From Escherichia coli (GTDB taxonomy: Bacteria; Pseudomonadota; Gammaproteobacteria; Enterobacterales; Enterobacteriaceae), in the NCBI RefSeq assembly GCF_002854065.1, contig NZ_CP024147.1: a stretch of DNA of 64,000 nucleotides. The stretch is one strand, 5' to 3'. Shown here one piece after another: positions 3,144 through 42,415 of the stretch. Each line of letters opens with the position of its first letter. The first letter of the stretch is position 1. The translations under genes were made by a program, and so were the position numbers. The notes under the pieces were generated by a model. The model searched no databases and had not been told where the DNA came from. It saw nothing but the letters and a program-made list of their open reading frames with translations.

Positions 3144-3473
3144 TTAACTCTCGTCCAGCACACTAAACATCCCGTTCCGCATCCCCTTAACCACCTGTTT
3201 AACCTGATAAAGTTCCTCCCGCAGCTCCTGCACCTCGTCACTGTCAGCGATAATGGTCAGGCACCCCTCCGAAATCTTCACCGTGACACCCCGCCCGGTA
3301 TCAAATCCGGCCTCTTTCAGCCAGTCGCCCTTAAGGTTCAGGCAGGGGTGTCGTGAGTAGTACGTGGTCATGTAGGTTTTGCTGTTTATGTGGCGGGCTC
3401 TGACATAGCCGACTTTATAGCGGCGCTGTGTTTTGGAAATGGTGACTTCTGGCGTAATATCGTGTTCAGCCAT
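3144..3473 (-). CDS. SymE-like type I toxin (AbrB-fold endoribonuclease family)
   Basis: 109-aa ORF; segment LKGDWLKEAGFDTGRGVTVKISEGCLTIIAD aligns with the SymE core ([31 protein letters not shown]) as I remember it. Confidence 0.7.
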   Translation of the reverse strand: MAEHDITPEVTISKTQRRYKVGYVRARHINSKTYMTTYYSRHPCLNLKGDWLKEAGFDTGRGVTVKISEGCLTIIADSDEVQELREELYQVKQVVKGMRNGMFSVLDES

Positions 3474-3601
3474 GATTAACTACCTTGATGAGTTGCTTGC
3501 GGGGAGCGCGCTTTCGTAATCTTGCCCTGCTAGCGGATTAACTTCACAAAAATCATTTCCCAACGTCTACACTTACTCCTGTTAATATCTCAGGAGCAGT
3601 A

Positions 3602-4111
3602 ATGAATCAGCAACGATTTGATGACAGCACCCTAATCCGTATCTTCGCCCTTCATGAGTTACATCGACTGAAAGAACATGGCTTAACGCGCGGGGCGCTT
3701 CTCGATTATCACAGCCGCTATAAACTCGTCTTTCTGGCTCATTCCCAGCCGGAATACCGCAAACTTGGCCCGTTCGTGGCTGATATTCACCAGTGGCAAA
3801 ATCTGGATGACTATTACAACCAGTACCGCCAACGCGTAGTTGTTTTGCTTTCTCACCCCGCCAACCGACGTGACCACACCAACGTTTTGATGCACGTTCA
3901 GGGTTATTTTCGCCCGCATATTGATTCCACAGAACGCCAGCAGCTGGCTGCGCTTATCGACAGTTATCGCCGTGGCGAGCAACCACTTCTTGCGCCGCTG
4001 ATGCGTATCAAACACTATATGGCGCTTTATCCTGACGCCTGGCTTTCAGGGCAGCGTTATTTCGAACTTTGGCCGCGTGTGATTAACTTGCGCCATTCAG
4101 GAGTTTTATGA
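3602..4111 (+). CDS. ybgA: DUF1722-family protein YbgA
   Basis: 169-aa ORF immediately upstream of and overlapping phr (ATGA overlap), as in the K-12 ybgA-phr operon. Confidence 0.85.
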   Translation: MNQQRFDDSTLIRIFALHELHRLKEHGLTRGALLDYHSRYKLVFLAHSQPEYRKLGPFVADIHQWQNLDDYYNQYRQRVVVLLSHPANRRDHTNVLMHVQGYFRPHIDSTERQQLAALIDSYRRGEQPLLAPLMRIKHYMALYPDAWLSGQRYFELWPRVINLRHSGVL

Positions 4112-26121: not shown

Positions 26122-27339
26122 ATGAGTAGCGTAGATATTCTGGTCCCTGACCTGCCTGAATCCGTAGCCGATGCCACCGTCGCAACCTGGCATAAAAAAC
26201 CCGGCGACGCAGTCGTACGTGATGAAGTGCTGGTAGAAATCGAAACTGACAAAGTGGTACTGGAAGTACCGGCATCAGCAGACGGCATTCTGGATGCGGT
26301 TCTGGAAGATGAAGGTACAACGGTAACGTCTCGTCAGATCCTTGGTCGCCTGCGTGAAGGCAACAGCGCCGGTAAAGAAACCAGCGCCAAATCTGAAGAG
26401 AAAGCGTCCACTCCGGCGCAACGCCAGCAGGCGTCTCTGGAAGAGCAAAACAACGATGCGTTAAGCCCGGCGATCCGTCGCCTGCTGGCTGAACACAACC
26501 TCGACGCCAGCGCCATTAAAGGCACCGGTGTGGGTGGTCGTCTGACTCGTGAAGATGTGGAAAAACATCTGGCGAAAGCCCCGGCGAAAGAGTCTGCTCC
26601 GGCAGCGACTGCTTCGGCAGCGCAACCGGCTCTGGCTGCACGTAGTGAAAAACGTGTCCCGATGACTCGCCTGCGTAAGCGTGTGGCAGAGCGTCTGCTG
26701 GAAGCGAAAAACTCCACCGCCATGCTGACCACGTTCAACGAAGTCAACATGAAGCCGATTATGGATCTGCGTAAGCAGTACGGTGAAGCGTTTGAAAAAC
26801 GCCACGGCATCCGTCTGGGCTTTATGTCCTTCTACGTGAAAGCGGTGGTTGAAGCCCTGAAACGTTACCCGGAAGTGAATGCTTCTATCGACGGCGATGA
26901 CGTGGTTTACCACAACTATTTCGACGTCAGCATGGCGGTTTCTACGCCGCGCGGCCTGGTGACGCCGGTTCTGCGTGATGTCGATACCCTCGGCATGGCA
27001 GACATCGAGAAGAAAATCAAAGAGCTGGCAGTCAAAGGCCGTGATGGCAAGCTGACGGTTGAAGATCTGACCGGTGGTAACTTCACCATCACCAACGGTG
27101 GTGTGTTCGGTTCCCTGATGTCTACGCCGATCATCAACCCGCCGCAGAGCGCAATTCTGGGTATGCACGCTATCAAAGATCGTCCGATGGCGGTGAATGG
27201 TCAGGTTGAGATCCTGCCGATGATGTACCTGGCGCTGTCCTACGATCACCGTCTGATCGATGGTCGCGAATCCGTGGGCTTCCTGGTAACGATCAAAGAG
27301 TTGCTGGAAGATCCGACGCGTCTGCTGCTGGACGTGTAG
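26122..27339 (+). CDS. sucB: Dihydrolipoyllysine-residue succinyltransferase E2 component
   Basis: 405-aa ORF with lipoyl domain ([11 protein letters not shown]) and Ala/Pro-rich linker. Confidence 0.97.
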
Positions 27340-27344
27340 TAGTT

Positions 27345-27545
27345 TAAGTTTCACCTGCACTGTAGACCGGATAAGACATTATCGCCTTCTCCGGCAATTG
27401 AAGCCTGATGCGACGCTGAACGCGTCTTATCAGGCCTACGGGAAGCACCGATGTAGGTCGGATAAGGCGCTCGCGCCGCATCCGACAAGCGATGCCAGAT
27501 GCGACGCTTGCGCGTCTTATCAGGCCTACGGGTGACCGACAATAC
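27345..27545. repeat. REP/BIME elements between sucB and sucC
   Basis: Multiple copies of the gcctgatgcgacgc / gtaggcctgataagacgcg palindromic unit. Confidence 0.8.
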
Positions 27546-27614
27546 CCGGGAGCGATACGAAATATTCGGTCTACGGTTTAAAAGATAACGATTACTGAAG
27601 GATGGACAGAACAC

Positions 27615-28781
27615 ATGAACTTACATGAATATCAGGCAAAACAACTTTTTGCCCGCTATGGCTTACCAGCACCGGTGGGTTATGCCTGTACTACTCCGCG
27701 CGAAGCAGAAGAAGCCGCTTCAAAAATCGGTGCCGGTCCGTGGGTAGTGAAATGTCAGGTTCACGCTGGTGGCCGCGGTAAAGCGGGCGGTGTGAAAGTT
27801 GTAAACAGTAAAGAAGACATCCGTGCTTTTGCAGAAAACTGGCTGGGCAAGCGTCTGGTAACGTATCAAACAGATGCCAATGGCCAACCGGTTAACCAGA
27901 TTCTGGTTGAAGCGGCGACCGATATCGCTAAAGAGCTGTATCTCGGTGCCGTTGTTGACCGTAGTTCACGTCGCGTGGTCTTTATGGCCTCCACCGAAGG
28001 CGGCGTGGAAATCGAAAAAGTGGCGGAAGAAACTCCGCACCTGATCCATAAAGTTGCGCTTGATCCGCTGACTGGCCCGATGCCGTATCAAGGACGCGAG
28101 CTGGCGTTCAAACTGGGTCTGGAAGGTAAACTGGTTCAGCAGTTCACCAAAATCTTCATGGGCCTGGCGACCATTTTCCTGGAGCGCGACCTGGCGCTGA
28201 TCGAAATCAACCCGCTGGTTATTACCAAACAGGGCGATCTGGTCTGCCTCGACGGCAAACTGGGCGCTGATGGCAACGCACTGTTCCGCCAGCCTGATCT
28301 GCGCGAAATGCGCGACCAGTCGCAGGAAGATCCGCGTGAAGCACAGGCTGCACAGTGGGAACTGAACTACGTTGCGCTGGACGGTAACATCGGTTGTATG
28401 GTTAACGGCGCAGGTCTGGCGATGGGTACGATGGACATCGTTAAACTGCACGGCGGAGAACCGGCTAACTTCCTGGACGTTGGCGGCGGCGCAACCAAAG
28501 AACGTGTAACCGAAGCGTTCAAAATCATCCTCTCTGACGACAAAGTGAAAGCCGTTCTGGTTAACATCTTCGGCGGTATCGTTCGTTGCGATCTGATCGC
28601 TGACGGTATCATCGGCGCGGTAGCGGAAGTGGGTGTTAACGTACCGGTCGTGGTACGTCTGGAAGGTAACAACGCCGAACTCGGCGCGAAGAAACTGGCT
28701 GACAGCGGCCTGAATATTATTGCAGCAAAAGGTCTGACGGATGCAGCTCAGCAGGTTGTTGCCGCAGTGGAGGGGAAATAA
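27615..28781 (+). CDS. sucC: Succinyl-CoA synthetase beta subunit
   Basis: 388-aa ORF; N-terminus [18 protein letters not shown] (ATP-grasp). Confidence 0.97.
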
Positions 28782-29650
28782 TGTCCATTTTAATTGATAA
28801 AAACACCAAGGTTATCTGCCAGGGCTTTACCGGTAGCCAGGGGACTTTCCACTCTGAACAGGCCATTGCATACGGCACCAAAATGGTTGGTGGCGTAACT
28901 CCAGGTAAAGGCGGTACTACCCACCTCGGCCTGCCGGTGTTCAACACCGTGCGTGAAGCTGTTGCTGCTACTGGCGCTACCGCTTCTGTTATCTACGTAC
29001 CAGCACCGTTCTGCAAAGACTCCATTCTGGAAGCCATCGACGCAGGCATCAAACTGATTATCACCATCACTGAAGGCATCCCGACGCTGGATATGCTGAC
29101 CGTGAAAGTGAAGCTGGATGAAGCAGGCGTTCGTATGATCGGCCCGAACTGCCCAGGCGTTATCACTCCGGGTGAATGCAAAATCGGTATCCAGCCTGGT
29201 CACATTCACAAACCGGGTAAAGTGGGTATCGTTTCCCGTTCCGGTACACTGACCTATGAAGCGGTTAAACAGACCACGGATTACGGTTTCGGTCAGTCGA
29301 CCTGTGTCGGTATCGGCGGTGACCCGATCCCTGGCTCTAACTTTATCGACATTCTCGAAATGTTCGAAAAAGATCCGCAGACCGAAGCGATCGTGATGAT
29401 CGGTGAGATCGGCGGTAGCGCTGAAGAAGAAGCAGCTGCGTACATCAAAGAGCACGTTACCAAGCCAGTTGTGGGTTACATCGCTGGTGTGACTGCGCCG
29501 AAAGGCAAACGTATGGGCCACGCGGGTGCCATCATTGCCGGTGGGAAAGGGACTGCGGATGAGAAATTCGCTGCTCTGGAAGCCGCAGGCGTGAAAACCG
29601 TTCGCAGCCTGGCGGATATCGGTGAAGCACTGAAAACTGTTCTGAAATAA
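28781..29650 (+). CDS. sucD: Succinyl-CoA synthetase alpha subunit
   Basis: 289-aa ORF; N-terminus [45 protein letters not shown]. Confidence 0.97.
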
Positions 29651-29750
29651 ATATCTGTAATAAGAAATAGCCCTCGCCGCTTCCCTCTACAGGAATGGCG
29701 AAGGGCTGTCGGTTTCGACATGGTTGGCCATCGTATGATGGCCTTTTTTA
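29651..29750 (+). ncRNA. sdhX: Candidate SdhX (RybD)-type 3'UTR-derived sRNA ending at the sucD terminator
   Basis: Sequence shows two hairpins after the sucD stop, the second (ggccatcgtatgatggcc + T-run) a rho-independent terminator; SdhX is known to derive from the sucD 3'UTR in E. coli; the sRNA sequence itself is not verified from memory. Confidence 0.45.
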
Positions 29751-30316
29751 TGCCTTAAACGGTTAACCACGGTCGAAATCTGACTGCAGGCTTGACTGCA
29801 TGACCACAGCCACTGTGGATTGCCGCAACCGACCGCAAGCCACGAATAAGAACGACGGCGAATTTCGAATCGTTACCTGATGCACTGGCTTCCCAGCGTT
29901 TGACCGTAGCGTTAAGTAAATCAACAAAAGCGATGTTCACCGCTTTTCGTCAAGTCGTGCCATTTGTCAGCCAGGATCGGGTCTTTACCCCGGATATTGC
30001 AGCATCGCAAAAATTCTTAGAGGGATATGCTATAAATCAAAAATAAAATCTTTGTTGATTGTTTATCATAATATCCACAGATATGATAAATGATATCAAT
30101 TTAATAATTTTCACTTAATGTGATTCCGGATAATTCGAAAGGCGCTGTGCTTTTCGGATTATTATTATCTGATTAAGATATTTGTCACGCCAGGCTTACT
30201 GGTTTATAAATGTCAATCATGATTCTTATAAATTATTTATTGCTGCTTTGGTTACCATTACTTCGTAATAAGTAATGTATTTTTGATTGTTTAAACTATT
30301 TTTAAGGGACGGCATT

Positions 30317-30418
30317 ATGCGAGGGAAAATACCTAAAACGGAACTGCTGGTGACTTTTGAGGTCGTCGCACGTCATGAAAGTTATACCAGAGCGGCAGAG
30401 GAGTTAGCGTTAACCCGG
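30317..30418 (+). pseudogene. LysR-type transcriptional regulator, N-terminal 34 codons only, truncated by IS1
   Basis: MRGKIPKTELLVTFEVVARHESYTRAAEELALTR resembles the LysR winged-HTH start; the reading frame runs into the IS1 terminus and stops on IS1 sequence. Confidence 0.6.
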
Positions 30419-30431
30419 TAATGACTCCAAC

Positions 30432-30935
30432 TTATTGATAGTGTTTTATGTTCAGATAATGCCCGATGACTTTGTCATGCAGCTCCACCGATTTTGAGAA
30501 CGACAGCGACTTCCGTCCCAGCCGTGCCAGGTGCTGCCTCAGATTCAGGTTATGCCGCTCAATTCGCTGCGTATATCGCTTGCTGATTACGTGCAGCTTT
30601 CCCTTCAGGCGGGATTCATACAGCGGCCAGCCATCCGTCATCCATATCACCACGTCAAAGGGTGACAGCAGGCTCATAAGACGCCCCAGCGTCGCCATAG
30701 TGCGTTCACCGAATACGTGCGCAACAACCGTCTTCCGGAGCCTGTCATACGCGTAAAACAGCCAGCGCTGGCGCGATTTAGCCCCGACGTATCCCCACTG
30801 TTCGTCCATTTCCGCGCAGACGATGACGTCACTGCCCGGCTGTATGCGCGAGGTTACCGACTGCGGCCTGAGTTTTTTAAATGGCGGAAAATCGTGTTGA
30901 GGCCAACGCCCATAATGCGGGCGGTTGCCCGGCAT
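30432..30935 (-). CDS. insB: IS1 InsB (C-terminal transposase domain, expressed as InsAB' by -1 frameshift)
   Basis: 167-aa ORF …[47 protein letters not shown]… matches IS1 InsB. Confidence 0.95.
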
Positions 30936-31129
30936 CCAACGCCATTCATGGCCATATCAATGATTTTCTGGTGCGTACCGGGTTGAGAAGCGGTGTAAGT
31001 GAACTGCAGTTGCCATGTTTTACGGCAGTGAGAGCAGAGATAGCGCTGATGTCCGGCAGTGCTTTTGCCGTTACGCACCACCCCGTCAGTAGCTGAACAG
31101 GAGGGACAGCTGATAGAAACAGAAGCCAC
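30854..31129 (-). CDS. insA: IS1 InsA (transposition inhibitor / N-terminal part of the InsAB' transposase)
   Basis: 91-aa [46 protein letters not shown]… matches IS1 InsA. Confidence 0.95.
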
Positions 31130-31184
31130 TGGAGCACCTCAAAAACACCATCATACACTAAATCAGTAAGTTGGCAGCATCACC

Positions 31185-31655
31185 CACCACGATTTGCAAA
31201 ATTTCATTGTGCGCCATGGCATCGACAATGCTGGTGGGGAAAGCATGCGAAATAAATACTTTTAGCGTAAAGGGTTCTGCCGCGACCACTCCGGTGGTTT
31301 CGGCACCGTGTGCAACAAAATTAATTCCTGTACCTGGCATGAAGAAATTTACCGTTATCAAGCCTAAGGCAATTGACAGCAATGAGGCGCAAATAAATAA
31401 AAAGAGTGTTTTAGAAAAAATACGACCAAGGGCTTTGGCATCGCCCATTTTAGCAATACCTACCACCAGGGTAGAGACCACTAACGGAGCGATAATCATT
31501 TTTATCAGTCGTAAGAAAATCGTCGTGAATATCGATATTTCTTGCGCATAGAGTTTTGCGGTTTCCGGTGAAGCAGTGTTATTGAGCACTACGCCGATAA
31601 TCATTCCAAGTACCAGCGCCAAAAGAATCATCGTGGTTAAACTTATTTTCTTCAT
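31185..31655 (-). pseudogene. Glutamate/dicarboxylate:cation symporter (DAACS family, GltP/DctA-like), N-terminal ~157 codons, 3'-truncated by IS1
   Basis: IFLRLIKMIIAPLVVSTLVVGIAKMGDAKALGRIFSKTL… aligns with the GltP N-terminal region; GGAGG RBS before ATG at 31655; the ORF continues into IS1, where it terminates. Confidence 0.8.
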
Positions 31656-31815
31656 TTTTTCCTCCATCAGGTGCACGGCGATAAATCAGAATCAGGAGAA
31701 GTAGATGCCTGAATAGAGATTCAGGCATCTACCTGCTATTACAACCTTACAAATAGCTGAAGTGTTGAACTGCAATAAGTGACGGGATGTCAGTTGGCTA
31801 AAAGTATTCGGATTT

Positions 31816-32133
31816 TTACAAATCGAAACTCATATTTAATAAAGGTGCATGTTGCTGTGCACCATAGACATCATTGTCACCTACATTCCCGGAGATAATA
31901 TCTCGTGGCATGACGATTTTTACTGCGTTAGAAGGATCAAACCAGACAATACGATGAATAAAGTCAGGTTCAACATGATATAAGCGCGCAATCAGTTCTG
32001 GGGTTAATTGCCCTGATGATTTAACTCGCTCATAGTTTTCTTTCGTTTTAAATAAAATATCTAAAACCAGTTCGTAAGGTCCGGCATTTTTCGAACGAAT
32101 GACTTGCGCCAGTGAGACAATTGACTGTTTCAT
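31816..32133 (-). CDS. DUF4387-family protein (105 aa), function unknown
   Basis: Small ORF translationally coupled (ATGA overlap) to the upstream DUF1446 gene; family assignment is from memory of the AtuA-partner family. Confidence 0.6.
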   Translation of the reverse strand: MKQSIVSLAQVIRSKNAGPYELVLDILFKTKENYERVKSSGQLTPELIARLYHVEPDFIHRIVWFDPSNAVKIVMPRDIISGNVGDNDVYGAQQHAPLLNMSFDL

Positions 32134-33500
32134 GCCTGAACTCCTTCTGGCGTCACCTGTTCAATATGGAAATCAAAACGCAGAGCGTCGTTGGCTTCAA
32201 TCAGGTGATATATGGAAAATTCGTATACCGGCCCGCCCTGGATATCAGAAGGGGAGAACGGGAACGCCAGGTTGCCTGCGGTAGCGATGCGGTTTTCATA
32301 GCCGTAGTGCAGCATGGTAGAGCGCACCAGCGAGCAAACGCTATTGGCAATTTCCTGGGTCGGTGCAACTACATCAAGGACAATCCCCAGCTCATGCCCG
32401 GCAGTTTGCATCGGTTCATGGTCGCCCATCACCCCGTTTTTACCGTACAGGTGGAAAATGATGCGAATGCTGTCATCGTCTAACGACAGGTTACGCGAAA
32501 CGCTGGTTTTGACTTCATCGATGATTTTATCGATCCCGGCGATCATGATCGGGTCGCGCGTTCCGGCGATGGTCAGACAGCGGAAGCCCACCCGTCGCGC
32601 ACCTTCCAGTTTCAGGGCATACGGCGTTTCTTCATGCTTAGAACCGCTGACGTACACTTCGCCGTCATTGACTGCTTTAAATGTGCAGCCTTTCAGGTTC
32701 AACACGCCGCCAGGTCCTGGCAGGAAGTAGGGATCGGATTTCTCATACAGTGTGTGTGCAGCTGCTGACGTTTCGGTAAATTTACGCTTCGGATTAAATG
32801 TCTTCAGCGTAAAGCCGTTGTCATCAATGATGCCCATCGCACAGTCAGAGCCTGAGCCGGGCGTTGCGGCGATTGCTGCGCACTCAAGGATTTTCCCACA
32901 ATGCAGCGCCAGACCTTCATCAAAGCCTTGCATGATCGGTAGCGCAGCAAAGCAGGCCGGGTCGTAAGCGCGCCCACCCAGCACCACTTGCGCGCCTTCT
33001 TTCAGCGCCCGCTGGAAGGGTTCGATGCCCATTTGCGCGACGATATACGTACTTTCGTCAATCGCGTCGTGGGTTAACGGCGGGACAAAATCCAGCGCCG
33101 TGATTTTGCCGTTATCCAGCGCCTGGTGGACGATGGCTTTGTCAACGTCTGCCGGGATCAACGCCATCGAGAACGAGAGGTGCTCTTCCTGGGCAATCTC
33201 ATGAATTATTTCTCGGCACCACTCCAGGTGTGGTGCGGCACCAGAACCGCCAGCCGTTCCGATCACCACCGGTATATTATTTTGCACGCCTGCGGTGATC
33301 ATATAGCGCAGATCGCGCTTGACCCCTGCGCGATCGGTAAACGGTTTGCCTGCCCCGAGGTAGTGGGGGCCTGGATCGGAAGAGCCTGCATCAACGGCGA
33401 TCAGATCGGGCGATTCTGCCATCGCTTTACGGAAGCTCTCTTCCGGGAATCCATACCCGAGGATTGCCGTTGGCGATAAGACTTTAAAAGAACGAGCCAT
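32130..33500 (-). CDS. DUF1446 / AtuA-like protein (456 aa), function unknown
   Basis: ORF immediately downstream of the methylaspartase gene (3-nt gap); AtuA-like assignment from sequence recollection, not a search. Confidence 0.6.
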   Translation of the reverse strand: MARSFKVLSPTAILGYGFPEESFRKAMAESPDLIAVDAGSSDPGPHYLGAGKPFTDRAGVKRDLRYMITAGVQNNIPVVIGTAGGSGAAPHLEWCREIIHEIAQEEHLSFSMALIPADVDKAIVHQALDNGKITALDFVPPLTHDAIDESTYIVAQMGIEPFQRALKEGAQVVLGGRAYDPACFAALPIMQGFDEGLALHCGKILECAAIAATPGSGSDCAMGIIDDNGFTLKTFNPKRKFTETSAAAHTLYEKSDPYFLPGPGGVLNLKGCTFKAVNDGEVYVSGSKHEETPYALKLEGARRVGFRCLTIAGTRDPIMIAGIDKIIDEVKTSVSRNLSLDDDSIRIIFHLYGKNGVMGDHEPMQTAGHELGIVLDVVAPTQEIANSVCSLVRSTMLHYGYENRIATAGNLAFPFSPSDIQGGPVYEFSIYHLIEANDALRFDFHIEQVTPEGVQA

Positions 33501-33503
33501 TTG

Positions 33504-34745
33504 TTAATCCTTAGCCTGCAACAGCGCGATAGTACGATTCATTTCGTTGAAGACGATATCGAGGCCTTCGTCAAAACCCATCCCTGGTTTTACCAGCATA
33601 CGCATAGGGCGAGCGGCAAGGGCGACGTGGACACAGGTGCGGGCACTAACATCAGTTTCATTGCAGGTGCCGCCCTGGTACGCTTCCATGCTGTGGCTGT
33701 TGCAGTAAAGAACCGCATCGACGATGTTGTGAATACTTCCAAGATCCGGGGTTTTGATTTGCACCATGTGACAACTGGCGGCATCAGTGAAATCAACAAT
33801 ATCCTGGTAGGTGTTACACCATTCATCGGCCACAATTTTCACGCCGGAACCGAGGCGCGTCAGCTCTTTGGTAATCGCGGTCAGCAGGCGAATTTGGTCG
33901 GGCTTGTTACCGGCATCGACCGGCCCTTCAATGTAGAGCGGCAGGCCTTGCGCTTCTTTTTCCAGGCTGGCGATGTATTGCGCACAGCGAAGCGGATCCA
34001 TATCGAAGATCAGACCGATAGTGCCGTATACATCGATGTGCAGGGTAGGGTGGTAGCGTGCGCTGGTGCGCTTGCTCAGAATGCGATCCGACAGCCAGCG
34101 GACATATTCGCGCAGTTTTTCACCTTTAAAGCCCAGCTTCTCTTCGACGTTATTAATCAGCGCATGGGGCAGCACGTCGATGCCCTTAAGGATCATCTTA
34201 TCGACGGCGATATATCGATCGTCGCCGCTCTGGCCAAATAATGGAATGGATTCCGCCACGTGTGGCAACTGCCATTCATCACAGACCACTTCAGTTTTCA
34301 GACGGCCGGTTGCCAGCGCAGTAGCATCAAGCAGCGCCTGTGATAATCCGTAGCGCACGGCGGTATGCAGCAAGTTGCCGTCAATACGCAGTTTGTCGAA
34401 GAAACGGGCATTCGGCAGGAAAGCATCCACATCGCGGCCTACCAGTAATGGCTTGATATGGTCGTTGAGGAACGGAATAAAGTGCTCTGCGAGGAACAGT
34501 GGATCGCGACCACCTGCCCCGGAATACTGTACGGCAGCACAGTCACCTACAGCGACCGCGCCGTTTTCCAGAATCAACTGTACCGATACGCACTCCCCGG
34601 CCTGACGAACGGCGTTAAACCCCTGTGTTACCGGCTCCCCGGTATAAAAAAAGCCGTCATGACCCGCTCCGTTTTTTATCGCCTGCTGGTCATCGAAATA
34701 GAATGAGGAGTAGCCAGCGGTGAACAGAGCCTGTTTTATTTTCAT
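33504..34745 (-). CDS. mal: 3-methylaspartate ammonia-lyase (methylaspartase, enolase superfamily)
   Basis: 413-aa ORF; strong similarity to clostridial methylaspartase as I remember it (…FYFDDQ.AIK.GAGHDGF.YTG…CAAVQYSGAGGRDPLFLA…HMVQIKTPDLG…). Confidence 0.9.
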   Translation of the reverse strand: MKIKQALFTAGYSSFYFDDQQAIKNGAGHDGFFYTGEPVTQGFNAVRQAGECVSVQLILENGAVAVGDCAAVQYSGAGGRDPLFLAEHFIPFLNDHIKPLLVGRDVDAFLPNARFFDKLRIDGNLLHTAVRYGLSQALLDATALATGRLKTEVVCDEWQLPHVAESIPLFGQSGDDRYIAVDKMILKGIDVLPHALINNVEEKLGFKGEKLREYVRWLSDRILSKRTSARYHPTLHIDVYGTIGLIFDMDPLRCAQYIASLEKEAQGLPLYIEGPVDAGNKPDQIRLLTAITKELTRLGSGVKIVADEWCNTYQDIVDFTDAASCHMVQIKTPDLGSIHNIVDAVLYCNSHSMEAYQGGTCNETDVSARTCVHVALAARPMRMLVKPGMGFDEGLDIVFNEMNRTIALLQAKD

Positions 34746-36190
34746 TATGGTCTTTCTATTAATTTACTGTGGGATACAGCATTGATGTCATCTACAACCA
34801 TCTGGAATGTCGGTTGGCGTCCTTCAAAGCGTGCGCGTTCCGCGACGTAATCGTGGTGGAGGTCGAGAATATCTTTTGGCAATGGAACGGCTCCGGCTTC
34901 CAGTACGCGTATCGCGCCGGTGTTGTCACGGACCGGAAGAATATTGCCCGCGTTGCAGGCGGCTGGCGCAAACGGCACATCCAGTACGCCCGCTTCAAAT
35001 GCCAGCACCGTACCGCGCGCAATATCACCATTACCCAGTTCGAACACTTTATTCAGTACCGCGCGAACCTCGCTCTTAATCAGTTCAATTTCCAGTTCAA
35101 CCGCAGGGCACGGCGGGAATTTCTGCTCATTGACCATGTTGAGCATCTGGCGGGAGGCTTTCAGCCCCTGAATGTTGGCAGCGGCAGTCGGGATACCCCA
35201 GGCTTCGTGCGGACTTTTGGTGATGACTTTGGTGGCACCAGACATCCCCGCGACGGCTGCGCCCCAGGAGATAATAGCGAACGCTTTCGATTCGTCTTCC
35301 GGAAAGCCGCCCATCCACTGGTGAAACACGGTACTCAATTCATAGTCGGTATAGCCATAGCTCTGAAAGTATTCGTGTGCAAGTTCACGCAGAGACTGGA
35401 TCGCCGCAACATCCTGCGTCAGGCTGCCGACCTGGCCATAACCAACGGTGATAGATTTCACACCCTGTTCCAGTGCCAGCAAGCCTTCGATTATCGCGAT
35501 AGAGTGCGAGATAAACGGCGGGATCAGCGTACCCGTTAGTGGGCCAAACGGTTCGCGGTTGATGCGGATCCCGTGTTCTTCATACATCCCCATTAAACGG
35601 TCGCAGTACTGCCAGTCGCGGATCGATTTTTCCAGCGTTACGCGTTTGGCATACGGAATGTTGTAGGAAATGCCACCGCCTTCATAACTGGTAAAGCCGC
35701 TGGCCATTGAGATTTCAGCCAGCAGACGCGCATCTGGCGTGCCGTGGCGGATCTGTAGCGGTTTTTGCAGGGTTTCGGTGAGGCGACGGCAAGCTGCGAC
35801 ACCATGGTTAACTACCGGTAAACCGTTCAGTTTAGAGGTTCCGGCTTCGATGGATTTTTTAATCCCTACAGCCGCTTCTTCGTACCGATTCAGACGGGTA
35901 TATGCATCGATGGTGCTTGGCAGCAGATCGCACTCTTCTTGTAGTGTTTTCAGCAGTTCGATGTGTTCGTCCATCAGCGCCACACCTGCGCGCGGTTGGC
36001 TAAGGGTTTTACCTTCCTTGTCTGCTTTCAGCAGCGCAAGAGAGAAGCGTTTATGCTCAGGGATGGTTTGTTGGTATTTAACGCCATCTTCAAAGATTTC
36101 AACATCCTTGCCGGTTTCCCAGGTTTTCAGTACCTGTTGCCGCTCGGTCATGAATTCGTCATGGGTTAATTTCTTATTTCGAAGTTCCAT
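34745..36190 (-). CDS. glmE: Glutamate mutase E subunit (methylaspartate mutase epsilon chain)
   Basis: 481-aa ORF, 1-nt stop/start overlap with mal; size and position match GlmE/MutE. Confidence 0.85.
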   Translation of the reverse strand: MELRNKKLTHDEFMTERQQVLKTWETGKDVEIFEDGVKYQQTIPEHKRFSLALLKADKEGKTLSQPRAGVALMDEHIELLKTLQEECDLLPSTIDAYTRLNRYEEAAVGIKKSIEAGTSKLNGLPVVNHGVAACRRLTETLQKPLQIRHGTPDARLLAEISMASGFTSYEGGGISYNIPYAKRVTLEKSIRDWQYCDRLMGMYEEHGIRINREPFGPLTGTLIPPFISHSIAIIEGLLALEQGVKSITVGYGQVGSLTQDVAAIQSLRELAHEYFQSYGYTDYELSTVFHQWMGGFPEDESKAFAIISWGAAVAGMSGATKVITKSPHEAWGIPTAAANIQGLKASRQMLNMVNEQKFPPCPAVELEIELIKSEVRAVLNKVFELGNGDIARGTVLAFEAGVLDVPFAPAACNAGNILPVRDNTGAIRVLEAGAVPLPKDILDLHHDYVAERARFEGRQPTFQMVVDDINAVSHSKLIERP

Positions 36191-36208
36191 TGATTGCAGC
36201 CTTAATTG

Positions 36209-37597
36209 TTATAGGGTTAAGCATTGAATACTGGTGCGCGCGGCGGCCAGCGGATCGACTCTGGCGACGTTTGCCAGCAGTGGTAATAGCCCCCGGGAAT
36301 CGCGGTAATATTCAAATTCGGTCGGTAAGAGAATGCGTTTACCGTCGTCGTTTAACTCGCGGTATTTCAACCAGTGATGCATATCGAACTGACTGGCACG
36401 CGAGAGCCATCCGCCGGATCCGACGACTTTACGCACGGTTGTCAGGTCACGTCCCATCTGTAAATCGACATTGCCGACGCAGGTGCAGACCTCTTTTTTG
36501 GTGCCCGCATGTCTTTCGGTGGCATAACCCACACACAGTCCGGCCAGGACGGTATCGAAATATTTCTCTTCTGCATTTGCGGGTAAGTAGTCGGGATGAG
36601 CGACTAGATGACGGAGGTAATGATAAAAAGCGTCCAGCTGTGCGGGTTGCTGAGCAAAATTCACATTGACTAACTCTTTCGCACTTTCACCAACCACCAC
36701 TGCCGAGACGCGCATTCCCAGATCGCCTTCCACCGTCCGTTTTACGAAGGGTTCCGGTACGCCGTGTAAAACGGTGTCGGGCGAGAGCGTGTTGGCACAG
36801 GCGGAATAAACATCGGTGGTTGCGCCGCCCATGTCGATCAGCATGAACTCTTTCCAGCTGTGATCGACGTTACTGATTGCCTTGACCAGTTCAAAGACCG
36901 TCCATGGTGTCGGCATTGGTTCTTCGCCTGTTTTATCAACAATGACATCCAGCCCTTTCCCTTTAACGATGCGTTTAAGGAATATGTCGCAAATAGCCTG
37001 GCGTGCGGCTAAAGGGTTCGGATGGTCAAGATCGGGCAGAACATTGTCGACGATGGTCAGGTCTTTATGCCCGAGGATCTCCTGCACCTCGTCCTGAATA
37101 TCCCGGTTTCCGGCATAAATAATGGCGCAGTCGAGTTTGGATTCTGCCAGCACACGGGCGTTATTCAGTCCGTAGCTTTCTTCTCCGCCGTCGGTGCCGC
37201 CGGTGAACAAGAGAATATCGGGCTGCGTTTCTTCCAGTGCCTGGATATCACGGCGGTTCAGCTTGTAGGCGTAATATTGCGCAATTTTAGCACCCGCAGA
37301 GTGAGCGGTTACTTTCGCGGTTTCCAGGGTGATAGAAGGCACCAATCCCATTGCGGCAACCGCCAGCCCACCTTTGGCAGAGGAGGAATACTTCAATGCA
37401 ACCTCACCGCTGTTTAACAGGGGGAGGGCATTATCTACGTTTAACACCTGGTTCAGGCTGGAGAAAAACCCCTTCGCCAGATGATGGGTGGTGGTTGGGG
37501 TCAGTACGTGGTTAACCAACGTTAACGCGTCCCCCTCCCGGGTGAAGAGGGCTGCTTTGGTCCACGTCGATCCAATATCGACAGAGACGATTTGCAT
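36209..37597 (-). CDS. glmL: Glutamate mutase-associated protein GlmL/MutL (ASKHA-fold ATPase-like)
   Basis: 462-aa ORF between glmS and glmE, as in clostridial glutamate mutase operons. Confidence 0.8.
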   Translation of the reverse strand: MQIVSVDIGSTWTKAALFTREGDALTLVNHVLTPTTTHHLAKGFFSSLNQVLNVDNALPLLNSGEVALKYSSSAKGGLAVAAMGLVPSITLETAKVTAHSAGAKIAQYYAYKLNRRDIQALEETQPDILLFTGGTDGGEESYGLNNARVLAESKLDCAIIYAGNRDIQDEVQEILGHKDLTIVDNVLPDLDHPNPLAARQAICDIFLKRIVKGKGLDVIVDKTGEEPMPTPWTVFELVKAISNVDHSWKEFMLIDMGGATTDVYSACANTLSPDTVLHGVPEPFVKRTVEGDLGMRVSAVVVGESAKELVNVNFAQQPAQLDAFYHYLRHLVAHPDYLPANAEEKYFDTVLAGLCVGYATERHAGTKKEVCTCVGNVDLQMGRDLTTVRKVVGSGGWLSRASQFDMHHWLKYRELNDDGKRILLPTEFEYYRDSRGLLPLLANVARVDPLAAARTSIQCLTL

Positions 37598-38046
37598 CAG
37601 ATAGCCTCTTCAAGAATACGAGTATCAACGTCATGACGTTGGTTGATATCGTGGGCCATCAGCTGACAAACATCTTCTAAGTCATGACTTGGGGCAAAGA
37701 CGCGATCAAATCCCATCTCTTTGAATTTGGTTTCCACGTCAGCGAAGTCATGTTTTCCGACCACCAGGTTACCGCCCACATAGAGCAGGATGTCCCCCAG
37801 TCCACGCTCGATGCAGCGTTCGCGCATGCCCAGACAGTCGATATCGCCATGCCCATAGATAGAGGAGACGACAATCGCGTCAGCGCCAGTTTCAATGGCC
37901 GCATCAATATATTCGTCCTGGCTGACCATTACGCCCAGATTAATGACTCTGAAGTCGTGGTTGCTAAAAACGCGGTCCAGAACTTTATTGCCTACTGCAT
38001 GGCAGTCCGCGCCAATAACGCCAATCACAAGTGTTGCTTTCTTCAT
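37597..38046 (-). CDS. glmS: Glutamate mutase S subunit (B12-binding sigma chain)
   Basis: About 149 aa from [24 protein letters not shown]…; cobalamin-binding DxHxxG motif (ADCHAVG); TGATG overlap with glmL. Confidence 0.9.
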
Positions 38047-38592
38047 GGGTAATCCTTTGTAAGACAGAGAGTAAAATAAGTTACACACGTCGTATTTATG
38101 GCCGTTCATAACGGCACAGGTTTAATATCACAGGAGTGTCTTTATCTGACCGTAATGTTGCAATTGATCTATTTTCAAAATGTCTTTCGGGAAATGATTG
38201 TTTAAAGTGTGTTTTTAAATTCCCATGTTAATTCAGTATGTTATGTCAACTAATGTCATGAATGTTAAATTTTTAAAATTAACTTGATTTAATGTATTGA
38301 GATAATTGTGATCTACTTCTAATTTGCATTTTAGTGATATGGGTTTAGCCATGAGTAAATGCATTTCATAAAATTTAAGTCGAATTTCACTGCAATTCAT
38401 CTCTGCTTAATGTAAAAATAATGTTGAAAATAACAAATGGTTAATGATTCATGCGAATTATGACGTTAGTTAGCTCTTTTGATTTTTCGTAAAAAAGAGA
38501 GGTACATGAAGGTGCTACCAGTATGAGTAACGTTAATCAAAGGTTTTATTACGTCTGGCAATAACGCAGGCCATTTTCGCGACTGGGTGGAT

Positions 38593-39015
38593 TTAATCAG
38601 TATAATCCTCATACAATATTTCAGGATTAACTGAACCGTTAACCGGGTTTTGGTGTTGAAATTTAGAAATGGCGGAGTCAATCAATGAAGACAGTATCGA
38701 AAAAATAACTGTGTCAGAACTAATTTCAATTAATCCTTCTCGTTGTTGACCAAAAAAGATATTTATCTTGATTTCATTTGTACTACGGCAATCAATATGT
38801 AGTAATTTTTGATCGCTGAGATTTTCTGTTTCATAAATGTTTTTGGCGATAGTCGGATGTATTGATGCCAGACATCTGCTCAGATAAGCCAGATCCTTTA
38901 GGGAACACCCCGCTGAGTAGAGGATGTCAGAGAATTTTTGTGTGTCAACTGTTGTCTCTGAAGCGTATGTTGCATTGACAGGAAGGGTGTTGAAAGAGAT
39001 TTGAGATGGGATCAT
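38593..39015 (-). CDS. Hypothetical acidic protein (140 aa) in AT-rich segment
   Basis: ORF in a strongly AT-rich region; no recognisable motif. Confidence 0.5.
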   Translation of the reverse strand: MIPSQISFNTLPVNATYASETTVDTQKFSDILYSAGCSLKDLAYLSRCLASIHPTIAKNIYETENLSDQKLLHIDCRSTNEIKINIFFGQQREGLIEISSDTVIFSILSSLIDSAISKFQHQNPVNGSVNPEILYEDYTD

Positions 39016-39096
39016 TATTTAAATCTTTCCGTGAGTAATAAAAATTAATCCCCAGGCATTGTTTAACAATATTTGCCATAGGGGATATATAGAAAA

Positions 39097-40041
39097 TTAA
39101 AGTATTTTATTGGCTTCGGTTAACTGATCTATAACCAGTGCCAGATTGGTAAACATTTTGAAAAAGCGATACTGGCTCGGAATATCTCTTTCAAAGACGA
39201 AACATTCAAGGTCATTGTTTGAAAAATAAAGGACTAGTGTTGCTGATTCGTCAGGGAAAACATGGAAATGTATCTGGTTACCAGAAGGAGGATAGTCCAG
39301 AAGAAGGGTATCTTTGCCCGTCACATACCTGTTGTTGTCGTGGACGCTACGCTCACACTTCATCAGAGGTGTCAGGATACTCATGTATTCATCTGATGTT
39401 AATTTATTAAAATCATCATTCATTTTAAAGAAACGATAAAGTAACAGTACATCCTCTTGCGTAACCGGTTCGTTTGTTTTTAGAGGGAAATAAGCGGGAA
39501 CCAGAAGATGAGGTTCTAATCTATTTTGTTGAGCGCTATAACTGAATTTGAACATAAATTCCGGATCGCTCATCAATTGAGCGACATAATTATGCCTGGC
39601 TTCGAAAATTTTAATTTTTATCAGGTTAAATAAGTCTGTTTCGTCATCCTGTATTAAAAGACATTGGCCATAGCAGCCAGGCTTTTTTTCATTATAAGCA
39701 GAAACGGTTATTCTGTCAGAGGTGTCAACGTTATATTCAAAAGCCAGATAGTGACCTTCTTCATCGCGATTTGTTTCCAGGTTATTTAAATTCATCACAT
39801 GAAGTGTTTGCAATGCTGATTCAATGAGCTGTTGACTCTCTGAGGTAAATGTTTCGCGCTGCGTTGTATAAAGTGTATCAATTCCAACGACTATCCGATG
39901 TGGGTCAAGGATGGCGGCAATCATCTTTATTACCTGCACAGTCACGGGTGATGTCATTGATTCTTTATCTGTTTTTAGAGAATCATTAGATGGCCAACCT
40001 GAGAAGCGATTGACAGCCGAACCGATATTATCAGGACTCAT
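39097..40041 (-). CDS. Hypothetical protein (314 aa) in AT-rich segment
   Basis: ORF with Ser/Asn/Pro-rich N-terminus, no transmembrane segments, no recognisable catalytic motif; co-directional with the 140-aa ORF. Confidence 0.55.
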   Translation of the reverse strand: MSPDNIGSAVNRFSGWPSNDSLKTDKESMTSPVTVQVIKMIAAILDPHRIVVGIDTLYTTQRETFTSESQQLIESALQTLHVMNLNNLETNRDEEGHYLAFEYNVDTSDRITVSAYNEKKPGCYGQCLLIQDDETDLFNLIKIKIFEARHNYVAQLMSDPEFMFKFSYSAQQNRLEPHLLVPAYFPLKTNEPVTQEDVLLLYRFFKMNDDFNKLTSDEYMSILTPLMKCERSVHDNNRYVTGKDTLLLDYPPSGNQIHFHVFPDESATLVLYFSNNDLECFVFERDIPSQYRFFKMFTNLALVIDQLTEANKIL

Positions 40042-40547
40042 AGCAGCAACCTCATTGTAATCAAGCGAGGCGCTGAGCGTACTCGGCTATAGAAAAACTA
40101 ACTTGCAAAAATCGCTCATTTTTCATTTATCAGGCGAAAGTGGTCTCTGTACACTCAGAAACAATCACTCCCGCTAAGTCATACCTGTTTCATCGATACA
40201 TTTAAGTGATTATTACTAATGAAACAATAACATAACGGGCTTACGGTCGGTGCTCATAAAGGCAACAATCAATTAACTTTGATAAAAATATGTTATGTAA
40301 AATAGCAACAAATTGGCTACTCTAATCAATTGGTATTATAAAAAGTGGATAAGGCGGTTCTGTTAAATAAAATACTGGTTTTTTATCTATACCTTTTCAT
40401 TGTAATAATTGTGTTGCATAAATATTTCACAATAAATTAACAATAAAATCACCAATGATCTATGGTTTATACATAATTAACATATTTGGTTGGTTTTGAT
40501 ATAAATCAATTTTTAATTCTTGAAAAAAATCTGCAAAACACGATAAA

Positions 40548-40561
40548 TTGTCGTAGATCAA
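40548..40561. promoter_or_regulatory. Putative FNR/CRP-family site in the cydA upstream region
   Basis: ttgtcgtagatcaa matches TTGAT-N4-ATCAA with one mismatch; cydAB is known to be FNR/ArcA-regulated. Confidence 0.3.
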
Positions 40562-40846
40562 ATTGATGAGATCGTGACAATTTCGCTATAAATTGATCAC
40601 TGTCGAAAAATGCAAATTTGCTCAATAAAAACCTGTTTATTGTAAGGATTTTGCGGCGTAATATAATTACGGGATCAATTTGGTTTATTCATTAACATAT
40701 TTGTAACTTTTTTATCATTGTCTTTTCCTCTTTTGATGAAATGGCAACGATAGGGGCGAGCAAATAATTTTGTATTGGGGCATGCGTGTGACCCTTTCTA
40801 ACGGGGTTCACTCTCGGAGTCTTCATGCGATGAGCAAGGAGTCATG

Positions 40847-42415
40847 ATGTTAGATATAGTCGAACTGTCGCGCTTACAGTTTGCCTTGACCGCGATGTAC
40901 CACTTCCTTTTTGTGCCACTGACGCTCGGTATGGCGTTCCTGCTGGCCATTATGGAAACGGTCTACGTCCTTTCCGGCAAACAGATTTATAAAGATATGA
41001 CCAAGTTCTGGGGCAAGTTGTTTGGTATCAACTTCGCTCTGGGTGTGGCTACCGGTCTGACCATGGAGTTCCAGTTCGGGACTAACTGGTCTTACTATTC
41101 CCACTATGTAGGGGATATCTTCGGTGCGCCGCTGGCAATCGAAGGTCTGATGGCCTTCTTCCTCGAATCCACCTTTGTAGGTCTGTTCTTCTTCGGTTGG
41201 GATCGTCTGGGTAAAGTTCAGCATATGTGTGTCACCTGGCTGGTGGCGCTCGGTTCAAACCTGTCCGCGCTGTGGATTCTGGTTGCAAACGGCTGGATGC
41301 AAAACCCAATCGCGTCCGATTTCAACTTTGAAACTATGCGTATGGAGATGGTGAGCTTCTCCGAGCTGGTGCTTAACCCGGTTGCTCAGGTGAAATTCGT
41401 TCACACTGTAGCGTCTGGTTATGTGACTGGCGCGATGTTCATCCTCGGTATCAGCGCATGGTATATGCTGAAAGGTCGTGACTTCGCCTTCGCTAAACGC
41501 TCCTTTGCTATCGCTGCCAGCTTCGGTATGGCTGCCGTTCTGTCTGTTATTGTTCTGGGTGATGAATCCGGCTACGAAATGGGCGACGTGCAGAAAACCA
41601 AACTGGCTGCTATTGAAGCTGAGTGGGAAACGCAACCTGCGCCTGCTGCCTTTACTCTGTTCGGCATTCCTGATCAGGAAGAGGAGACGAACAAATTTGC
41701 GATCCAGATCCCTTACGCGCTGGGCATCATTGCAACGCGTTCCGTGGATACTCCAGTTATCGGCCTGAAAGAACTGATGGTGCAGCATGAAGAACGCATT
41801 CGTAACGGGATGAAGGCGTACTCTCTGCTCGAGCAACTGCGTTCTGGTTCTACCGACCAGGCGGTTCGTGACCAGTTCAACAGCATGAAGAAAGACCTCG
41901 GTTACGGTCTGCTGCTGAAACGCTATACGCCAAACGTGGCTGATGCGACTGAAGCGCAGATTCAACAGGCAACCAAAGACTCCATTCCGCGTGTAGCGCC
42001 GCTGTACTTCGCGTTCCGTATCATGGTGGCGTGTGGCTTCCTGCTGCTGGCAATCATCGCGCTCTCTTTCTGGAGTGTCATCCGCAACCGCATTGGCGAG
42101 AAAAAATGGCTCCTGCGCGCCGCGCTGTACGGTATTCCGCTGCCGTGGATTGCTGTAGAAGCGGGCTGGTTCGTGGCTGAATATGGCCGCCAACCGTGGG
42201 CTATCGGTGAAGTGCTGCCGACAGCTGTGGCGAACTCGTCACTGACCGCAGGCGATCTCATCTTCTCAATGGTGCTGATTTGCGGCCTGTATACCCTGTT
42301 CCTGGTGGCAGAATTGTTCTTAATGTTCAAGTTTGCACGCCTCGGCCCAAGCAGCCTGAAAACCGGTCGCTATCACTTTGAGCAGTCTTCCACGACTACT
42401 CAGCCGGCACGCTAA
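40847..42415 (+). CDS. cydA: Cytochrome bd-I ubiquinol oxidase subunit I
   Basis: 522 aa from [28 protein letters not shown]. Confidence 0.97.

Follow-up and report, generated by a model that had tools for sequence, protein, structure and literature searches.

The 64,000-nucleotide stretch of Escherichia coli DNA analyzed here (the window) carries, with a probability that we put at about 0.85, an enterobacterial methylaspartate (mesaconate) pathway island, in the form of a six-gene unit whose accessory half has been deleted and whose catalytic capacity is probably retained. The locus is real, ordinary and already known. A "clostridial" B12-radical pathway beside TCA-cycle genes looks surprising, and an earlier note on this DNA implied as much, but the cluster was described in E. 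coli O157:H7 by Kronen & Berg in 2015 (PMC4682846), is annotated in RefSeq, and is carried by 1,121-1,135 of 5,426 complete E. coli genomes (~21%, or about one in five). Its synteny across genera has also been published, and methylaspartase activity in enterobacteria was reported before 2015.

Identification of the six genes

The genes of the unit, and the hairpin that follows it, are:

37597-38046, minus strand: glmS, glutamate mutase B12-binding subunit S, 149 aa (NF002612; 61.3% identity to C. cochlearium GlmS)
36209-37597, minus strand: glmL (mutL), glutamate mutase accessory/reactivating protein, 462 aa (TIGR01319, NF040745)
34745-36190, minus strand: glmE, glutamate (methylaspartate) mutase catalytic subunit E, 481 aa (TIGR01503)
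33504-34745, minus strand: mal, 3-methylaspartate ammonia-lyase, 413 aa (TIGR01502)
32130-33500, minus strand: cmlA, putative citramalate lyase large subunit (AtuA/DUF1446 family), 456 aa (Pfam AtuA; PDB 9ERQ chain A)
31816-32133, minus strand: cmlB, putative citramalate lyase small subunit (DUF4387), 105 aa (Pfam DUF4387, E=2.9e-39; PDB 9ERQ chain B)
31701-31732, minus strand: perfect 14-bp hairpin with a 4-nt loop, dG -24.3 kcal/mol, between cmlB and the symporter gene (below)

The earlier note proposed the first four of these as glutamate mutase and methylaspartase genes, and they are uninterrupted open reading frames exactly where it placed them, with coordinates and lengths that match the RefSeq annotation in other strains. 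Assignment was made by the NCBIfam equivalog cut-offs, which all four proteins exceed, so the proposed identities hold. GlmS scores 253 bits with NF002612 (cut-off 110) and 247 bits with TIGR01501 (cut-off 136), whereas the methylmalonyl-CoA mutase C-terminal domain model gives it 49 bits, under its cut-off of 57, and all remaining B12 families give 45 bits or less. The 61.3% identity of GlmS was measured against chain A of the C. cochlearium structure 1I9C, and its DxHxxG base-off/His-on motif is kept as D14-C-H16-A-V-G19. GlmE matches a single family, methylaspartate mutase E (TIGR01503, 862 bits versus a cut-off of 390), and is 58.3% identical to C. cochlearium GlmE; it is identical to the latter at all nine aligned active-site positions that we take from the 1CCW/1I9C literature, namely the substrate-binding R66/R100/R149/E171/Y177/Y181 together with H150, K326 and E330. 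GlmL, encoded between glmS and glmE, scores 510.5 bits with NF040745 (cut-off 475) and 897 bits with TIGR01319. Mal scores 544 bits with TIGR01502 (cut-off 286) and, across its whole length of 413 residues, shares 93.7% identity with the MAL of Citrobacter amalonaticus (1KKO). In an ungapped alignment (C. tetanomorphum numbering) it is identical at the ten positions that we take from the 1KCZ/1KKO literature to be catalytic, ligand or pocket residues: K331 (the base), H194 and Q329, the Mg2+ ligands D238/E273/D307, and the pocket residues Q172/T360/C361/L384. The motif and the lyase catalytic residues on which the earlier proposal depended are thus all conserved, and the structural matches are to glutamate mutase (1CCW/1I9C/6H9E) and methylaspartase (1KKO, 1KCZ). 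At the level of sequence the four genes are confirmed as real, intact and correctly identified, and the predicted chemistry, glutamate to methylaspartate to mesaconate, is fully supported.

The operon continues through cmlA and cmlB

The junctions from glmS to cmlB are, in order, a 1-nt overlap, an 18-nt gap (glmL-glmE), a 1-nt overlap, a 3-nt gap between the mal stop and the cmlA start, and a 4-nt overlap of cmlA by cmlB. TGATG overlaps had been noted at glmS/glmL and glmE/mal; the first is as described, while the second reads TAATG and is still a 1-nt overlap. Do glmS, glmL, glmE and mal then form a self-contained four-gene operon with mesaconate as its end product, as the earlier note had it? 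The four genes are intact and coupled, but the string runs on through the equally coupled cmlA and cmlB, all E. coli loci examined share this six-gene order, and the first hairpin along the operon appears only past cmlB. In addition, the two further proteins are near-identical to a solved citramalate lyase: CmlA aligns without gaps over its full length to chain A of 9ERQ, deposited as "Citramalate lyase, subunit A (cmlA)", at 92.5% identity (E=4.8e-293), and CmlB shows 84.6% identity to chain B, deposited as "Citramalate lyase, subunit B (cmlB)" (E=5.2e-57; also PDB 9EVF). From this identity and coupling, the encoded route would end at pyruvate plus acetate and not at mesaconate, and we give the four-gene reading almost no credence. 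The hairpin at 31701-31732 is a possible operon-internal terminator or attenuator.

RefSeq labels the products of cmlA and cmlB "AtuA family" and "DUF4387", respectively, and the functional name is absent from both RefSeq and NCBIfam. AtuA was reportedly once proposed to be an acetate-releasing lyase. We suggest that genes with these two labels be read as CmlAB, which makes the operon one of six genes. The window pair is predicted to be a citramalate lyase, a name that follows the PDB depositors and one preprint (10.64898/2026.01.16.699985), which states the activity for the Raoultella enzyme and from which the 9ERQ/9EVF enzyme appears to be that of Raoultella planticola. A literature search for a primary CmlAB paper found none, and for DUF1446 no functional study besides that of Kronen & Berg was found. 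The notion that DUF1446 plus DUF4387 could be newly proposed as the missing citramalate-cleaving enzyme was set aside, because the pair has already been deposited in the PDB as CmlAB and so its role is not a new idea.

Location of the island and an IS1-associated deletion

The island and the features at its damaged end are:

29758-40470, no strand: variable island between sdhX/sucD and cydA; the same site in K-12 holds mngR-mngA-mngB
30317-30416, plus strand: 5' stub (33 codons) of a LysR-family regulator gene, cut by IS1 (window 28501-30416 corresponds to 1702-3617 of the compared locus L001)
30417-31184, minus strand: IS1, 768 bp, insA/insB intact, terminal inverted repeats present, 99.9% match to EC2641 IS1B
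31185-31655, minus strand: N-terminal 157 of 426 codons of a GltP/DctA-type dicarboxylate/amino acid:cation symporter gene, truncated by IS1 (partial NCBIfam matches)

The alignment with K-12 MG1655 ends at window position 29757 and restarts at 40471, with sucCD (27615-29650) on one side and cydA (from 40844) on the other, so the island does lie between sucABCD and cydAB as had been claimed. The accompanying remarks on composition are also borne out: operon GC is 0.525 and that of the whole window 0.513, and the adjoining segment (38047-40843) is AT-rich with a GC of 0.351.

The locus is, however, not "complete" as the earlier note described it. The IS1 element, the only one within the window, stands in place of 4,021 bp that are present in intact strains; comparison with O157:H7 TR01 and with CUWW06, whose flanks are 100% identical, places the deletion with single-base precision. 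Lost with these 4,021 bp are most of the LysR gene (annotated at 3518-4423 of L001), cobO, the mesaconase gene fumD, and two thirds of the glutamate-type symporter gene, whose remnant is matched by the NCBIfam GltP/DctA profiles only over profile positions 2-164 (the full gene used for comparison is that of EDL933). The linked LysR regulator, the only linked regulator, is thus destroyed in the window strain. No target-site duplication surrounds the element; its flanks, ...GTTAACCC on one side and CACCACGAT on the other, are not repeats. It is not the insertion that CUWW06 carries, since the CUWW06 site is empty here and the 9-bp duplication of that insertion lies elsewhere. Among the 5,426 complete E. 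coli genomes, no other has the deletion junction, and EC2641 has a separate, independent IS1 truncation in the same segment. The window strain is therefore a rare natural deletion variant without fumD, cobO, the symporter and the LysR regulator, and together with its flank-identical intact relative CUWW06 it makes a pair with which to ask which accessory genes the pathway needs.

The proposed pathway and the state of the operon

In the reading that we prefer, glmS-glmL-glmE-mal-cmlA-cmlB would be transcribed as one unit from 38046 down to 31816 on the minus strand. GlmS/GlmE with adenosylcobalamin would convert L-glutamate to (2S,3S)-3-methylaspartate, with GlmL as accessory/reactivating protein; Mal would remove ammonia from methylaspartate to give mesaconate; a class I fumarase would hydrate mesaconate to (S)-citramalate; and CmlAB is predicted to split citramalate directly into pyruvate and acetate. 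Intact strains additionally have in their island the glutamate-type symporter, the dedicated mesaconase FumD, the adenosyltransferase CobO and the LysR regulator. Since none of the six enzyme genes is damaged, the catalytic capacity should be retained, and the truncated strain would probably rely on housekeeping functions, with FumA/FumB hydrating mesaconate, BtuR adenosylating B12 and carriers of the GltP/GltS type providing uptake; the genes for these presumed substitutes (fumA/fumB, btuR, gltP/gltS) lie outside the window. The mesaconase activity of FumD and the promiscuity of FumA/FumB have been published (PMC4682846).

Are the six genes still expressed and in use? The operon of the window strain could be a silent, functionally dead remnant, decaying and with neither expression nor flux. 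Four island functions have been removed by the IS1-associated deletion, EC2641 has suffered its own truncation of the same segment, the hut genes (below) are already gone from most island versions, and even in O157:H7 with an intact island Kronen & Berg detected no methylaspartase activity, saw no growth on glutamate and identified no condition that induces the genes (PMC4682846). Against this, none of the six ORFs is damaged and all match those of a strain with the complete island at 100% identity, which makes the deletion too recent for decay to be judged, and dN/dS values of 0.00-0.15 for all six genes (versus a ~97%-identical allele) indicate strong purifying selection across E. coli. The fumD segment is kept in 1,122 of ~1,123 island-bearing genomes, which shows that the island is being maintained overall; mesaconate can be hydrated by FumA/FumB (PMC4682846), and that the LysR protein regulates the operon is itself only presumed. 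We consider a dead operon doubtful, though clearly the most serious of the alternatives, and infer that the six genes are expressed in the window strain. A LysR pseudogene as the general cause of the lack of expression in O157:H7 was rejected, as the TR01 gene is interrupted by an internal stop whereas EDL933 has an intact copy.

Could the enzymes serve some purpose other than glutamate catabolism, such as assimilation of mesaconate, citramalate or methylaspartate, or supply of methylaspartate for a secondary metabolite? Both glutamate mutase and MAL catalyze reversible reactions, which engineered E. coli has been made to run backwards (10.1101/2025.11.12.688011), and the lack of any demonstrated growth of E. 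coli on glutamate (PMC4682846) would fit such a role. But the intact island has a glutamate/aspartate-type symporter, a mesaconase and a predicted citramalate lyase, and in ~13% of carriers also glutamate-producing hut genes, which together make a coherent catabolic route, and no biosynthetic NRPS/PKS-type genes adjoin the operon. We judge another direction or role to be very unlikely, and retain glutamate catabolism.

A possible link to histidine catabolism

One further remnant lies in the island:

29909-30046, plus strand: 3' remnant (last ~46 codons) of a hutH-type histidine ammonia-lyase gene, aligning to the end of the EC19 gene

The EC19 gene is a full-length HAL gene of 556 aa, and the matching peptide ends ...STKAMFT..VVPFV.QDRVFTPDIAASQKFLEGYAINQK followed by the stop; the EC2641 annotation calls the same remnant a 48-aa "histidine ammonia-lyase". 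In the ~13% of island carriers mentioned above, hutU-permease-hutD-hutI-hutG-hutH directly adjoin the LysR gene and the glm/mal/cml genes, and the hutH 3' stub is retained in all other island versions examined, including the window. One might see the E. coli island as fundamentally the later half of a pathway for histidine catabolism and not a stand-alone glutamate fermentation unit. We hold this to be an improbable, speculative reading, but if the true feed or inducer were histidine, urocanate or formiminoglutamate, the missing inducing condition in O157:H7 would be explained, and the truncated strain and the intact, 100%-identical CUWW06 would be a natural test pair for the accessory genes. 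The hutH remnant and the IS1 truncation are minor additions to a known island.

The upstream region

The AT-rich segment upstream of the operon comprises:

38047-38592, minus strand: AT-rich 546-bp region upstream of glmS, GC ~0.31, presumed promoter/regulatory region
38593-39015, minus strand: AT-rich orphan ORF, 140 aa
39097-40041, minus strand: AT-rich orphan ORF, 314 aa

No Rfam family matched anywhere in 29500-41000 at E<=1, and so no cobalamin riboswitch is seen upstream of glmS. Promoter and terminator counts were not above those of shuffled sequences, and no convincing glmS promoter was found, a point against the preferred reading. Consensus scans upstream of glmS turned up neither FNR nor sigma-54 sites, and a single weak CRP-like one that has 2 mismatches. 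Neither AT-rich ORF has a Pfam, NCBIfam, PHROG or PADLOC match, and two large protein searches returned homologues in Escherichia/Shigella only, or fragments. The dN/dS values listed for the two ORFs are 0.28 and 0.67; they are inherited with the island in E. coli and were found in 1,134 genomes.

Comparison with known systems

The O157:H7 island has the same sucD-cydA site and the same genes in the same order as the window, with 99% nucleotide identity and 0-4 residue differences per protein between the window and EDL933. Mal differs from EDL933 Mal at 2 residues, and the O157:H7 MAL is active in vivo (10.1101/2025.11.12.688011). Unlike that island, the window has lost fumD and cobO, along with most of the LysR gene and two thirds of the symporter gene, to the IS1-associated deletion, and so it departs from the statement of Kronen & Berg (PMC4682846) that fumD is co-localized "in all cases". 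The same authors gave DUF1446 no function and left the fate of citramalate open; CmlAB appears to answer both, and this reading would close the 2015 gap.

With the clostridial pathway of C. tetanomorphum and C. cochlearium the window shares the glmS-glmL-glmE-mal order, clearly homologous proteins (GlmS 61%, GlmE 58%, and Mal), identical catalytic residues, and the overall conversion of glutamate to pyruvate and acetate. The two differ downstream of mesaconate: in clostridia the mesaconase is the two-subunit MesAB and the citramalate lyase a CitDEF-like complex with activation genes (PMC4682846), whereas the enterobacterial island has the single-chain class I fumarase FumD (absent in the window) and the unrelated two-subunit CmlAB. 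The CmlAB proteins of 9ERQ/9EVF are equal in length to the window proteins (456 and 105 aa), the window pair being known from sequence. Citrobacter amalonaticus MAL (1KKO/1KKR) comes from another host species and is functionally no different from the window Mal. The haloarchaeal methylaspartate cycle, which assimilates acetate, turns mesaconate into its activated form, mesaconyl-CoA. Unlike that cycle, the window has neither a CoA-transferase nor a mesaconyl-CoA hydratase, and what is encoded instead is the route through mesaconase and citramalate lyase.

Identity of the core genes

Four minus-strand ORFs between the suc and cyd genes (29650 is the last position of sucC/sucD, 40844 the first of cydA) had been read in an earlier note as a complete glutamate mutase and methylaspartase operon. 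All four coordinates were reproduced exactly, and the ORFs are free of internal stops:

37597-38046, minus strand: glmS, 149 aa
36209-37597, minus strand: glmL, 462 aa
34745-36190, minus strand: glmE, 481 aa
33504-34745, minus strand: mal, 413 aa

TGATG overlaps had been given for two junctions; glmS/glmL is indeed TGATG, and glmE/mal is TAATG, though also a one-base overlap. The glmL-glmE spacing is 18 nt. The remark that the composition is host-like is upheld because the GC content is 0.525 in the operon and 0.513 in the window, versus 0.351 in the neighboring 38047-40843 region. The curated NCBI equivalog cut-offs (NCBIfam models) were our yardstick for protein identity, and all four proteins clear them by a wide margin.

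Scores of the core proteins against NCBIfam models, in bits (cut-off in parentheses)
GlmS: NF002612, 253 (110)
GlmL: NF040745, 510 (475)
GlmL: TIGR01319, 897 (204)
GlmE: TIGR01503, 862 (390); sole family match
Mal: TIGR01502, 544 (286)

The objection that GlmS belongs to another B12 mutase type fails because the methylmalonyl-CoA mutase domain model gives it only 49 bits, which is under that model's own cut-off. Against the solved C. cochlearium subunits, identity is 61.3% for GlmS, which contains the B12-binding motif D14-x-H16-x-x-G19, and 58.3% for GlmE, in which the equivalents of R66, R100, R149, H150, E171, Y177, Y181, K326 and E330 are all unchanged. Mal shows 93.7% identity to the enzyme of Citrobacter amalonaticus (1KKO), aligns without gaps with that of C. 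tetanomorphum (1KCZ), and keeps Q172, H194, D238, E273, D307, Q329, K331, T360, C361 and L384, so the objection that the lyase has lost catalytic residues fails as well. The conservation was computed; the choice of important residues follows the structural literature. The four genes had been named correctly and the feature is real.

Extent of the operon

The operon does not end at mal, as the earlier note had it; two more genes follow, the first beginning 3 bases past the mal stop and the second overlapping the first by four bases:

32130-33500, minus strand: cmlA, 456-aa ORF, Pfam AtuA (formerly DUF1446)
31816-32133, minus strand: cmlB, 105-aa ORF, Pfam DUF4387

NCBIfam has no model for either product, and in the loci of O157:H7 TR01 (L001), EC2641 (L002), CUWW06 (L004), O157:H7 EDL933 (L005), EC19 (L006) and MRY15-117 (L007) RefSeq calls them "acyclic terpene utilization AtuA family protein" and "DUF4387 domain-containing protein", respectively. 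These names stay at the family level despite PDB entries 9ERQ/9EVF, whose depositors named the chains "Citramalate lyase, subunit A (cmlA)" and "subunit B (cmlB)". A PDB sequence search matched CmlA to chain A (E 4.8e-293, 92.5% identity) and CmlB to chain B (E 5.2e-57, 84.6% identity), both full-length and ungapped. From these matches and the tight gene spacing the transcription unit is therefore predicted to be glmS-glmL-glmE-mal-cmlA-cmlB, and with CmlAB present the encoded route would end at pyruvate and acetate rather than at mesaconate, the end product proposed earlier. Compared with the EC19 allele (~97% identical), the six genes give dN/dS values of 0.00-0.15, indicating purifying selection within E. 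coli; across the species, then, the island is no relic. In the window cmlB has GC 0.384 and a GC3 of 0.321 (0.31 in EDL933), below the GC3 of its five partners (0.53-0.60 in the window, 0.53-0.61 across the window and EDL933), and it differs from the EC19 allele by a single synonymous change.

The first strong hairpin occurs only past cmlB, at 31701-31732 on the minus strand (perfect 14-bp stem, 4-nt loop, dG -24.3 kcal/mol). It occupies part of the 160 nt that separate cmlB from the symporter gene, has a T-rich, non-canonical tail behind it, and may act within the operon as a terminator or attenuator that divides two transcription units. No Rfam family, hence no cobalamin riboswitch, was found at 29500-41000, and promoter-like and terminator-like sites do not exceed their frequency in shuffled sequence. 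Upstream of glmS there is no FNR or sigma-54 consensus and a single weak CRP-like site.

Truncation by IS1

The locus had also been called complete, and in this strain it is not. The intact order (O157:H7 TR01, EDL933 and other strains) is sucD, LysR-type regulator, cobO, class I fumarate hydratase (fumD), dicarboxylate/amino acid:cation symporter, DUF4387, AtuA-family, mal, glmE, glmL, glmS, two hypothetical genes, cydA. Window 28501-30416 aligns with L001 1702-3617 and window 31185-41500 with L001 7639-17955, and between these blocks a 768-bp IS1 (30417-31184) stands where L001 has 4,021 bp. Only 33 codons of the LysR gene remain, cobO and fumD are wholly gone, and the symporter gene has lost the last 269 of its 426 codons.

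The window holds no second IS1. Both the ends of this element and its insA/insB are intact, and no target duplication flanks it, an arrangement that could stem from an adjacent deletion mediated by IS1 or from recombination between two copies of the element. The deletion is, by sequence comparison, very recent, since CUWW06, with ~15 kb of flanks 100% identical to the window, has the whole island (its IS1 is at another site, with a 9-bp duplication). When 5,426 complete E. coli genomes were searched with a 241-bp probe for the IS1/symporter junction, no further genome had it. The cobO-fumD-symporter segment occurs in 1,122 of them; apart from this strain, only EC2641, with a different IS1 deletion, has the operon without it.

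IS1 lies at four different positions in four strains, all sucD-proximal (window 30417-31184, L004 6001-6768, L002 3926-4693 and L006 1516-2213), and the window and EC2641 carry independent deletions reaching into the symporter gene; the island seems to have a hot spot for IS1 at this AT-rich, sucD-proximal end. In O157:H7 TR01 the LysR gene of the island (L001 3518-4423) is interrupted by a stop codon, and it is intact in EDL933 (L005 2561-3466) and CUWW06, so regulator loss recurs by different routes.

Proposed pathway

Glutamate would be taken up, normally by the island symporter, and converted by GlmS/GlmE with adenosylcobalamin to (2S,3S)-3-methylaspartate, GlmL keeping the mutase active. 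Mal would then release ammonia to give mesaconate, a class I fumarase would hydrate this to (S)-citramalate, and CmlAB would cleave citramalate to pyruvate and acetate. On established E. coli physiology, pyruvate would be used onward through pyruvate formate-lyase and Pta-AckA, yielding ATP. The genes for the mutase, Mal and CmlAB steps are intact in this strain; FumA/FumB, GltP/GltS-type carriers and BtuR may substitute for mesaconate hydration, uptake and B12 adenosylation, respectively, which we infer because their genes lie outside the window. External corrinoid is required because E. coli has no de novo B12 synthesis (10.1101/2025.11.12.688011). Because the LysR gene is lost, it is a serious possibility that the truncated copy is silent here.

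Distribution and flanking sequences

The four-gene core is present in 1,121-1,135 of 5,426 complete E. coli genomes (~21%); one of 1,137 places matching glmS-mal is on a record classed as plasmid. The island (29758-40470) occupies the place of K-12 mngR-mngA-mngB. Alignment with K-12 puts the sRNA gene sdhX at 29651-29751 (plus strand), at the sucD 3' end and ~6 nt before the island; an Rfam scan spanning it gave no match at E<=1. Identity to K-12 is 93.9% on the cydA side (40471-41889) versus 98.4% on the sucCD side (27100-29757), which suggests that the island arrived with, or adjoins, a recombined divergent segment. Three further features lie within the island:

29909-30046, plus strand: hutH-type 3' stub, final ~46 codons of a gene for histidine ammonia-lyase
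38593-39015, minus strand: orphan ORF, 140 aa, AT-rich, between glmS and cydA
39097-40041, minus strand: orphan ORF, 314 aa, AT-rich, between glmS and cydA

In EC19 (L006 1-8305) and MRY15-117 (L007 11140-18881) a full hutU-permease-hutD-hutI-hutG-hutH set adjoins the LysR and glm/mal/cml genes, and this segment occurs in 144-145 of 5,426 genomes. Because Hut enzymes make glutamate from histidine, the long form would encode a route from histidine through glutamate to pyruvate and acetate. Both orphan ORFs occur in 1,134 genomes, their distribution tracking the island; they have no domain, phage-family or defense-family match, and homologues were found in Escherichia/Shigella and none beyond. 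With a dN/dS of 0.67, the 314-aa ORF may be under weak constraint or may not be a gene at all.

Comparison with published systems

Kronen & Berg 2015 (PMC4682846) reported that 26.5% of E. coli strains, and among O157:H7 strains 90.6%, have the cluster, characterized FumD as a mesaconase/fumarase, and showed FumA and FumB to be promiscuous mesaconases too. They noted the DUF1446 gene downstream of mal, its function then unassigned, did not find citramalate lyase activity ("the fate of (S)-citramalate ... is still unclear"), and found no condition giving gene expression or methylaspartase activity in O157:H7. Earlier work by Kato and Asano, as cited in that paper, found methylaspartase activity in many enterobacteria. 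O157:H7 Mal expressed in vivo is active (10.1101/2025.11.12.688011), and the window Mal differs from that of EDL933 by two residues; in vivo, mesaconate is turned into (S)-citramalate by the FumA of E. coli itself (10.64898/2026.01.16.699985). The system is not new, having been published before and being widely annotated; its sole unusual aspect in this strain is the rare IS1 truncation.
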